In this document: positions 25,701 to 28,547 of the stretch, piece after piece
How the letters are laid out: every line of letters begins with the position of its first letter
How positions within the stretch are numbered: position 1 is the stretch's first letter
NCBI RefSeq assembly: GCF_057098645.1
Contig: NZ_CM169472.1
Length of the DNA stretch: 64,000 nucleotides
Strand: one strand, 5' to 3'
Position numbers: made by a program

Positions 25701-28547
25701 ATAGTAACGATCAAATCACGTTTCGGTTCGAGGTGGCGTAAACGCAGCTCTTTAAGATTATCTGACAGCTCCCAGGCACCATCCACTTTGCCGCTTTTTT
25801 TATCGACGACATGAATAACGCGTGAGAAATCCTGATCCGGGTCGAGAGGGATGGAGAACGTCAGCACCAGCGTGACTGCACCATCAAGTTGGACTTCAGA
25901 GAGATCCAGCAATGTCAGCGCCTTACCGGCACTCTGTTGTGCCAGTTTTTGTCGCTCCGGCACGGAGAGTTTTGCTGAACTCGCGTTTTCTGAAGAGGCC
26001 GCTTTAGTAACTTCAGAAGGCGCATCTTTTTTCACCGCTGTTGGCGCGTTATCGTTGTTGTCGCACCCTGCCAGCGCCAGCATTAGCATGCAGGCGGCTA
26101 CGCGTAACTTTTTCATTTTTCATCCCTGCCACAATGGCCCGTTAGCAACGTCGAATAATTATTATGCGTGAGAATTTACGTTATGTAATTCAGTATCACG
26201 CCCATACAATCCGAATTTTAGTGAGAATTGTGGCTCAGACAGCCAAATCAGCCTCTTTTGCTTGTCGCTTTTCACTAAACATCCGACAATTTAGCCTAAC
26301 CCCGGCAAAAATGGAGATGCCTATGTCCACGACATGGTTTGTAGGAGCCGACTGGCTCGCCGAACATATTGATGACCCGGAAATTCAGATTATCGATGCC
26401 CGCATGGCGTCGCCTGGACAGGAGGATCGTAACGTTGCTCAGGAGTATCTGAATGGACATATTCCCGGCGCAGTGTTTTTTGATATCGAAGCGCTTTCTG
26501 ATCACACTTCCCCGCTTCCGCACATGCTGCCGCGCCCGGAAACGTTCGCCGTGGCGATGCGTGAATTAGGCGTTAACCAGGATAAGCACCTGATTGTCTA
26601 TGACGAAGGTAATCTTTTCTCAGCCCCACGAGCATGGTGGATGCTGCGCACCTTTGGTGTAGAGAAAGTGTCGATTCTGGGGGGTGGACTTGCAGGCTGG
26701 CAGCGCGATGATCTGTTGTTAGAAGAAGGTGCAGTAGAGCTGCCGGAAGGAGAGTTTAACGCCGCGTTTAATCCTGAAGCAGTGGTGAAAGTAACCGATG
26801 TGTTATTGGCAAGCCATGAAAATACGGCGCAAATTATTGATGCCCGCCCGGCTGCACGTTTTAACGCAGAAGTTGATGAACCTCGCCCAGGTTTACGTCG
26901 CGGACATATTCCCGGTGCATTGAACGTTCCGTGGACGGAACTGGTGCGCGAAGGCGAACTAAAAACGACCGATGAACTGGATGCGATATTTTTTGGTCGC
27001 GGCGTCAGCTATGACAAACCGATTATCGTCAGCTGCGGCTCTGGTGTAACAGCAGCCGTGGTTTTGTTGGCACTCGCGACGCTGGATGTGCCAAACGTGA
27101 AACTGTACGACGGCGCATGGAGTGAATGGGGCGCGCGGGCAGATTTACCGGTTGAGCCATTGAAATAAGCTTTTTACAGGCAATAAAAAACCGCCGAATT
27201 TGGCGGTTTTTTATTGCTGGTCTGGTTCGCGGCCTTTCCAGCAGGTTGACTTGTGTTGCCGGAGCAACGCAGGCACCCCACAGTGTTGAAATACTCTCTT
27301 TTATGCCTGGCTATGTCAAGATAATAAACAGAGTAATTATTCAAACATGAGAGTATTATTCGTGACGGCCCTTTTCGCCGTCTCGCAAACGGGCGCTGGC
27401 TTTAGGAAAGGATGTTCTATGACCGTAAATGCAGGCACCCCACAGCGCTTGCTATCGCGGCAATATCGCCAGTGGTGCTGTCGTGACGCGGTCTTCGCAT
27501 GGACCGCACAATGAAGATACGGTGCTTTTGTATCGTACTTATTGTTTCTGGTGCGCTGTTAACCGAGGTAAATAATAACCAGAGTCTCTCCGGCAACAAT
27601 TTACTGGTGGTTAACAACCTTCAGAACAGCAGGTAAGCCCGAATGCCGCCCTTTGGGGCGGCATATTTTAGATTATCCGGTTCTGTTTAAAGTCACGCAA
27701 AAAACCACCCCAACGACGTTCATAGAATGGCGCAATATGTTCGGTAATAAAGTGGCTAATTCCTTTTTCCCCTTTTTTCACCTGACAAATATCGATTGGT
27801 TCATCGGCAGGTAATGTATCGGTCGCTACACTTCCCGCCGCCTGAATAATTTCTTCGACATCACCATCGGCTTCAATGCCAATAAGTAAATTAGGCTGTG
27901 CCTCTTCGTTCTCTTTAATTGAACATATAAAAGCACGCTTCACCGGCTTAATAGTTTTAAATAAGGTGGTGAGTGAATCAATCATTTGTGCTGGCGGCTC
28001 TGCGACTTCCGATAATATCAGCGATTCACCGCCTTCCAGGATTTCCTGGCTGCTCAGCGGATTTCCCTCTTCACCAATCAACAAACTGATTTCACGCGGC
28101 ATAAATTCTTTACCGGTCGGCAGTTTGGCATTAAGGAAGAGCGTTTCGCCAAGGGTCATCTCAAACAATGTGCGAACGGGCATTACGACAAATGCCTGTT
28201 CGTCTTCAACCGCCTGTTGAAGTGCTTCTAACGAGGTAAAAAAAGGAATGACGCTGGTGCCGTCTTCTTTTTCCCAGTGCTGTAAATCAAGCGCGCTATC
28301 TTCAACCACAGCCTCGCCCTGCGCCGCCGTACCAGGCACCCAGACGGTGGATTCCAGTAGAGTACGGAAAAAGGCCGGGCGGTGCGCCGGTTCGGTTGCT
28401 GCTTTTTCCAGCAGGTCTTCAAGTTCATTTTTTGTTTCGGACATAAGAACCACAATTCATTCAACGTTCGGGGCACAAGTGCCTGATGCGCCATACTTAT
28501 CAGGCCTACAAGGGATTCACAATTTGTTGAATTTGCAATACTTTGTA

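Follow-up and report, generated by a model that had tools for sequence, protein, structure and literature searches.

What is encoded in the interval between sseA and sseB of Escherichia coli is a question raised by a stretch of 64,000 nucleotides (nt) of contig NZ_CM169472.1 (RefSeq assembly GCF_057098645.1). In this whole stretch, called here the window, a preliminary description made from the sequence alone had placed a pair of translationally coupled small open reading frames (ORFs) in the ryfA region. The elements of that description are all found in the sequence: a Shine-Dalgarno (SD) motif, an ORF of 31 codons, an ATGA overlap and an ORF of 41 codons, located between sseA and sseB. The locus is taken here, with a probability of roughly 0.85, as the E. 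coli representative of timPR, a type I toxin-antitoxin system of enterobacteria; its transcript, formerly the ryfA RNA, would have timP (the 41-codon ORF) as its sole functional coding sequence (CDS). The 31-codon upstream ORF (uORF) is, most likely, an accidental reading frame in the leader RNA and no coupled partner gene. Note that the timPR system is already described and annotated, its toxin, antitoxin RNA and translation mechanism being in print.

The identity of the locus is defined by two family matches. The region 27365-27669 is a full-length ryfA RNA (Rfam RF00126; 311.4 bits, gathering score 80, alignment over model positions 1-296 of 296), the identification made in the preliminary description. 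The product of the 41-codon ORF (MKIRCFCIVLIVSGALLTEVNNNQSLSGNNLLVVNNLQNSR, beginning MKIRCFCIVLIVSGALL; ATG at 27511, stop at 27634-27636) matches NCBIfam NF040796, small toxic inner membrane protein TimP, with 80 bits (cutoff 45, E 1.1e-22), which bears out the proposal that this peptide is the counterpart of Salmonella TimP. Its residues 5-17 have a mean Kyte-Doolittle hydropathy of +2.86, as expected from the hydrophobic amino terminus noted before, and the terminator hairpin said to follow the ORF is present at 27643-27664 with its T-run. The window is identical across the locus to E. coli O145:H28 genomes, in which RefSeq timP (WP_243051032.1) lies at exactly 27511-27636. A timP CDS is annotated by the RefSeq Prokaryotic Genome Annotation Pipeline (PGAP) in 39 of 40 E. 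coli genomes drawn at regular intervals from 5,425 matching ones. The earlier remark that the locus is usually annotated only as the non-coding RNA ryfA is thus outdated.

The TimP frame is unbroken in every complete locus compared (38-42 amino acids (aa)), which come from Escherichia, Citrobacter, Superficieibacter, Yersinia, Rahnella, Erwinia and Pantoea. Outside Escherichia the identity to the window copy is 36-51%. Residues M1, K2, C7, I8, V12 and G14 are invariant across the seven genera, the amino terminus is conserved and length differences correspond to whole codons only. Judged from these alignments, the conservation of the 41-codon ORF clearly exceeds chance. A TimP of 45 aa beginning at the in-frame ATG 27499-27501, four codons upstream and within stem-loop 4 (SL4) of the leader, was used in a study of uropathogenic E. 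coli (UPEC) and is rejected here. The 41-aa call is better because the 27499 ATG is AAG in three Rahnella-type sequences, in Erwinia and in two Yersinia copies, while the 27511 ATG is invariant. Toxicity, inner-membrane localisation and repression by the antitoxin RNA TimR were reported for the Salmonella protein (Andresen et al. 2020, PMC7667032), which is also toxic in an E. coli host (FASTBAC-Seq selection, PMC13000454). By analogy, the window TimP is probably a membrane-targeted toxin with an uncleaved signal-like hydrophobic amino terminus, whose insertion into the inner membrane would render it leaky as in Salmonella.

The 5' part of the transcript has the organization of the Salmonella timP leader, whose published coordinates (PMC11228461, PMC7667032) fit the window with +1 at about 27367, +53 at 27419 and +145 at 27511. 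Its first 164 nt fold by minimum free energy (MFE) into stem-loops SL1-SL4. In an alignment of 23 leader sequences from the seven genera, the SL1-SL4 stems and a pseudoknot are 97.1% paired, with 8 pairs changed on both sides, against 38-51% pairing in slid controls. The lower stem of SL1 is formed by CCUUUUC (27370-76) and GGAAAGG (27405-11), with 97.5% of cells paired and 2 compensatory pairs. The 7-base pair (bp) pseudoknot between site 1 (27394-27400) and site 3 (27468-27474) is paired in 100% of the 23 sequences and has 3 compensatory pairs. The bases C57, C58 and G59 of PMC13000454 correspond to window positions 27423-27425. Comparison with the Salmonella leader relied on its coordinates in print and on Citrobacter sequences that share its TAG triplet (see below). 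In Salmonella, the pseudoknot (site 1) is essential for timP translation and sequestration of the SD by SL4 has been described (PMC11228461), while the switch between sites 2 and 4 was reported in PMC13000454.

The antitoxin RNA gene is predicted on the minus strand upstream of the leader. Its candidate promoter (TTGACA at 27319-27314, a 17-nt spacer and GAGTAT at 27296-27291) was read directly from the sequence, and this TTGACA-17-GAGTAT arrangement was not called in a scan for consensus sigma-70 promoters. About 100 nt downstream of this promoter/start region, the minus strand of 27180-27217 folds into a strong terminator, a 16-bp hairpin followed by a U-run. The published quantitative PCR primer for Shigella RyfB1, GGGGTGCCTGCGTTGCTC, is matched exactly within the window timR. 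The segments 27266-27283 and 27428-27445 form a direct repeat identical at 17 of 18 positions, the sole mismatch leading to a G-U pair in the TimR/leader duplex; a minus-strand transcript from ~27285 would therefore be complementary at its 5' end to the timP leader. This recognition sequence is hypervariable between E. coli alleles, yet within an allele it agrees with timR. In E. coli, five or more distinct recognition sequences are seen, and they are the most variable part of the locus in both target and seed, a variety that suggests diversification of toxin-antitoxin specificity. The version present in the window is rare, with 31 exact and 52 close matches among 5,426 genomes. Weak Rfam matches over the timR region, AgrB and IS128 among them, reflect the terminator, score under their gathering thresholds and were rejected.

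The spacer between sseA and timP varies in organization. In the window, the two halves of a 16-nt inverted repeat (27290-27305 and 27342-27357, 81% complementary) carry the motif GAGAGTAT(T) between timR and timP, once in each orientation; the two copies may be the -10 regions of two divergent promoters. The K-12-type spacer (NZ_CP029238.1, 2653250-2654200) is ~320 nt longer than window 27180-27365 and codes two timR-like units (104-300 and 429-622); a broken timP of only ~16 nt comes after the first. The K-12 timP target matches the distal timR (20 nt including G-U) and pairs with the adjacent timR over 11 nt only. The adjacent unit matches the target of GCG-type alleles (see below), while the window has one cognate pair. 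In three separate species (Yersinia similis, Citrobacter amalonaticus AUH_CA_2023_1 and Yersinia aleksiciae) the timR body is fused straight to timP at the shared 18-nt repeat, and SL1 and both promoters are gone. These fusions look like deletions between the timR seed and its direct-repeat target, by which the locus is presumably inactivated.

By homology with the Salmonella mRNA, translation of timP would be set by the structure of the leader RNA and would need no upstream ORF. The timP SD (GGA, 27501-03) would be locked in SL4. Translation would require the pseudoknot of site 1 with site 3 and, in addition, a site 2 paired to the 5' arm of SL4 (27488-93), by which the SD would be freed. The 5' end of TimR, transcribed from ~27285 to 27185 on the minus strand, would pair with 27428-45 in SL2, break the pseudoknot and so keep TimP synthesis off. 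The features of the locus are listed in the Table.

Table. Coordinates in the window of the features assigned to the timPR locus, with the basis of each assignment.
Feature	Position	Strand	Basis and remarks
Bidirectional intrinsic terminator common to sseA (+) and timR (-)	27180..27217	.	19-nt inverted repeat with flanking A/T runs
timR (RyfB1-like) antitoxin small RNA	27185..27285	-	Predicted promoter, pairing region and terminator; ends inferred, accurate to a few nt
TimR 5' seed, complementary to timP leader	27266..27283	-	18-nt direct repeat on + strand
timP mRNA (= ryfA RNA)	27365..27669	+	RF00126, 311.4 bits; transcription start placed near 27367 from Salmonella numbering
SL1	27370..27411	+	Rfam consensus structure, MFE fold, covariation
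Site 1 (CGCUGGC), pseudoknot partner of site 3	27394..27400	+	Covariation
31-codon uORF, judged incidental	27419..27514	+	No NCBIfam family, not conserved
Site 2 (GACCGU), pairs with site 4	27421..27426	+	100% pairable with 27488-27493 in 23 sequences (site 4 fixed by search pattern)
TimR-binding site (predicted), SL2 5' arm and loop	27428..27445	+	Complementarity and fold; covers uORF codons 4-9
SL2	27431..27452	+	MFE fold
SL3, loop with site 3 (27468-27474)	27455..27486	+	MFE fold, covariation
SL4, hides timP SD GGA (27501-27503); 5' arm = site 4	27488..27507	+	MFE fold, covariation; invariance imposed by search pattern
timP CDS, 41-aa small toxic inner-membrane protein (by family)	27511..27636	+	NF040796; RefSeq coordinates identical; ORF intact in 7 genera
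timP intrinsic terminator	27643..27669	+	Hairpin 27643-27664, 9-bp stem with 7 GC pairs, and T-run; 3' hairpin of Rfam model

The uORF has the appearance of a gene. It is preceded by an SD-like run (AGGAAAGGA, 27404-27412), starts at the ATG at 27419, codes for the peptide MTVNAGTPQRLLSRQYRQWCCRDAVFAWTAQ and ends at a TGA (27512-27514) that overlaps the timP start codon (ATGA, 27511-27514). Its 31-aa product has no NCBIfam match. When the 90-nt body of the uORF is shuffled with dinucleotide composition kept, 53% of the shuffles have no in-frame stop, and ORFs of at least 31 codons beginning with ATG occur at 5.5 per kb in the window. The ATGA overlap is automatic because the invariant Met-Lys start of TimP (ATG AAR) contains TGA, as found in 22 of 22 loci with or without the uORF. 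Neither the open frame nor the overlap exceeds what chance predicts. The putative signals of the uORF coincide with elements of the RNA fold. Its "SD" (GGAAAGG, 27405-11) is the 3' arm of the lower stem of SL1 and is conserved even where no start codon follows it; site 2 consists of the G of its ATG plus the five bases after it, leaving only the first two bases of the codon free to vary; and its codons 4-9 are the TimR target, within which falls all the amino-acid variation of the uORF. A 24-aa ORF from 27412, whose ATG abuts the SD-like run, was also considered and rejected.

Conservation of both ORFs across species, the check proposed in the preliminary description, separates the two frames: TimP is intact in seven genera, while the uORF start and frame are not kept. 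The uORF start codon is ATG in 10 of the 23 aligned sequences, ACG in 9, GCG in 2, GTG in 1 and TTG in 1, and only 5 of the 23 have both an ATG and a frame open up to the timP start. Genera other than Escherichia have ACG or ATG, and their shortened frames stop after 8, 14, 20 or 25 codons. Frame lengths are 8, 14, 19, 20, 25 or 31 codons, with stops in Yersinia, Rahnella, Erwinia, Pantoea and some Citrobacter, where TimP is intact. A single base sets the length: where the window has CAG (27443-45), two Citrobacter leaders, two Rahnella, Pantoea and one Yersinia copy have TAG, which corresponds to the stop at +77 in Salmonella (PMC11228461). Within E. coli, alleles were counted with 60-nt allele-specific queries in 5,426 genomes. 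The GCG allele, which has no start codon, is found in 2,808 (52%); the K-12 type totals 1,975, of which 1,642 are exact (GTG start, ~30%); and the window allele is found in 52. Alleles that bear ATG account for at most ~18% of the genomes, which fits the 7 of 40 of the even sample if equal scores are assumed to mean the same allele. Of the small-ORF pair proposed initially, the TimP part stands and the translational coupling is without support, if not wrong, the start codon and frame of its first member being unconserved, its SD base-paired and the published tests negative.

Those tests bear on the coupling of the two ORFs, which would operate in a way similar to hok/mok/sok. Ribosomes would start at 27419 through the upstream SD, cross SL2-SL4, stop on ATGA, open SL4 and re-initiate on timP, and TimR would block the uORF through its site over codons 4-9. 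The geometry of the window allele fits (AAGGA 6 nt before the ATG, 31 unbroken codons, overlapping stop), the TimR site lies 9-26 nt downstream of the uORF ATG, and a full-length uORF with ATG also exists in some other Escherichia alleles, in one Citrobacter genome and in Superficieibacter. Coupling is nonetheless highly improbable. The start codon is gone in ~52% of E. coli genomes and is ACG or GCG in 11 of the 23 cross-genus sequences. Most genera have stops in the frame at 8-25 codons yet retain timP and the TimR pairing, and frame and ATGA overlap are those expected by chance. The SD is paired in the lower stem of SL1, a stem that is itself required for translation (M7/M7' mutations, PMC11228461), and whether the leader is in its active (site 2-4) or its inactive (site 1-2) conformation, the G of the uORF ATG is base-paired. 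Fris et al. (2017, PMC5333039) predicted from a ribosome binding site and an ATG a "30-aa" protein in Shigella ryfA1; their cloning oligonucleotide ends in AGGAAAGGATGTTCCATG, the same uORF start as in the window, and the fusion of SD and ATG to gfp gave a transcript but no green fluorescent protein (GFP). In Salmonella, mutation of the +53 AUG to AAG left timP translation unaffected and coupling was ruled out (Eleftheraki & Holmqvist 2024, PMC11228461). RNAcode run on the Rfam alignment detected only the ORF at +145..+261, with no coding signal at the uORF (Andresen et al. 2020, PMC7667032). No ribosome-profiling evidence at E. coli ryfA was found in the literature searched. By analogy with the Salmonella and Shigella alleles, the window uORF is probably not translated, and for related alleles coupling is largely refuted. 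In lineages with the AUG at +53 and 31 unbroken codons (at most ~18% of E. coli, this O145:H28 allele among them), an occasional start at the uORF could bring ribosomes across SL2-SL4 to the timP start and so offer, by coupling, a second, TimR-sensitive route to TimP beside the pseudoknot switch, which is considered very unlikely as well. If true, this would be a lineage-specific add-on resembling hok/mok that arose by one TAG-to-CAG change within the hypervariable TimR target.

Several points weigh against the assignment to timPR with timP as the only functional CDS. The published uORF tests have their limits, the Salmonella uORF having 8 codons and the Shigella GFP fusion being cut at the start codon. 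The ratio of nonsynonymous to synonymous polymorphism (pN/pS) within Escherichia is 0.81 for timP and 0.59 for the uORF frame, with no excess at third positions, and is uninformative for both; the argument for purifying selection on TimP is therefore the integrity of its ORF between genera. The 22 cross-genus loci were found by a pattern scan of genome contigs fixed on SL4 and the start region, which missed Salmonella, so that the sample cannot speak to variation in SL4 or the start region. According to a recent study (AEM 2026, PMC13188913), whether E. coli ryfA codes a toxic peptide is still to be determined. Furthermore, UPEC ryfA alleles with a disrupted TimP ORF complemented all ryfA phenotypes (PMC8205139). 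The latter result favours the view that the E. coli transcript is mainly a trans-acting RNA (RyfA) engaged in stress resistance, fimbriae, motility and virulence, from which TimP is rarely or never made, the RNA being dual-function or the ORF effectively silent. It is in keeping with ryfA-dependent virulence of avian pathogenic E. coli, in which only minimal effects followed from losing timR (PMC13188913), with the lowering of ompC mRNA by Shigella RyfA1 (PMC5333039) and with reported binding of the RNA to ProQ (PMC10664665). All of this is compatible with a toxin function. A TimP ORF, a sequestered SD, a pseudoknot and a cognate TimR that are intact and conserved in seven genera, with indels of whole codons, are hard to explain for a purely non-coding RNA, and the toxicity of Salmonella TimP in an E. 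coli host points in the same direction. A transcript that acts mainly as RNA is thus held to be possible but doubtful. Because the UPEC phenotypes were complemented with the TimP ORF disrupted, ryfA may have TimP-independent RNA roles alongside its toxin function.

The assignment to timPR can be set against the systems known. Salmonella enterica timP/timR (Andresen 2020; Eleftheraki & Holmqvist 2024; Eleftheraki 2026) shares with the window both families (RF00126 and NF040796), the uORF AUG at +53 and the timP AUG at +145, SL1-SL4, the site 1-3 pseudoknot, sites 2-4 and a divergent TimR whose 5' end pairs with SL2. It differs in that TimP has 38 aa instead of the 41 of the window, with a divergent carboxyl-terminal half, and in the presence of an STM2534-like gene between sseA and timR, which the window lacks. 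The window leader ORF extends over 31 codons to the timP start because +77 is CAG, a stop in Salmonella. The 5' leader of Shigella dysenteriae RyfA1/RyfB1 (Fris 2017) is almost identical to that of the window, as the published oligonucleotide covers GGCCC...AGGAAAGGATGTTCcATG; the RyfB1 primer is exact in the window timR and the predicted "30-aa" ORF is the window uORF. There, the RNA was treated as non-coding after the uORF-GFP fusion failed, and the TimP ORF was not considered. Shigella has two sibling copies, the window one.

The hok/mok/sok systems (plasmid R1 parB and chromosomal homologues) resemble the window locus in their small membrane toxin, in the locking of its SD in a hairpin, in an antisense RNA with its target upstream of the toxin start and, in the window allele, in an upstream ORF whose stop overlaps the toxin start. 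Translation of mok is, however, required and conserved, whereas the window uORF is unconserved and its initiation region was inactive when tested in the Shigella GFP fusion. The hok mRNA must also be processed at its 3' end, while timP mRNA is activated without processing. In tisB/istR-1 and zorO/orzO, as in timPR, a divergent antitoxin small RNA pairs with a short stretch of the 5' untranslated region far upstream of the SD, and tisB also has a pseudoknot or standby element in 30S recruitment. The tisB and zorO mRNAs need 5' processing to become active, unlike timP, for which the switch is purely structural.

Regarding the borders of the locus, sseA occupies 26323-27168 on the plus strand and sseB 27668-28444 on the minus strand. 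The tail of the timP terminator (27643-27669) overlaps the last bases of the convergent sseB CDS. For timP, too, the consensus scan gave no sigma-70 site. The number of ryfA-like places varies, being 2-3 in some E. coli genomes (e.g., 2 places in one), and a ryfA match is absent in 1 of the 5,426 genomes. NZ_CP044293.1 retains the 5' 55% of ryfA only and has no annotated timP.

The value of the present assignment is chiefly that of a confirmation, the gene being already called by the NCBI annotation pipeline. The apparent coupled pair of ORFs is an artefact of a structured leader RNA read as coding sequence. The same uORF misled an earlier experimental study, in which no translation was found and the RNA was taken as non-coding.

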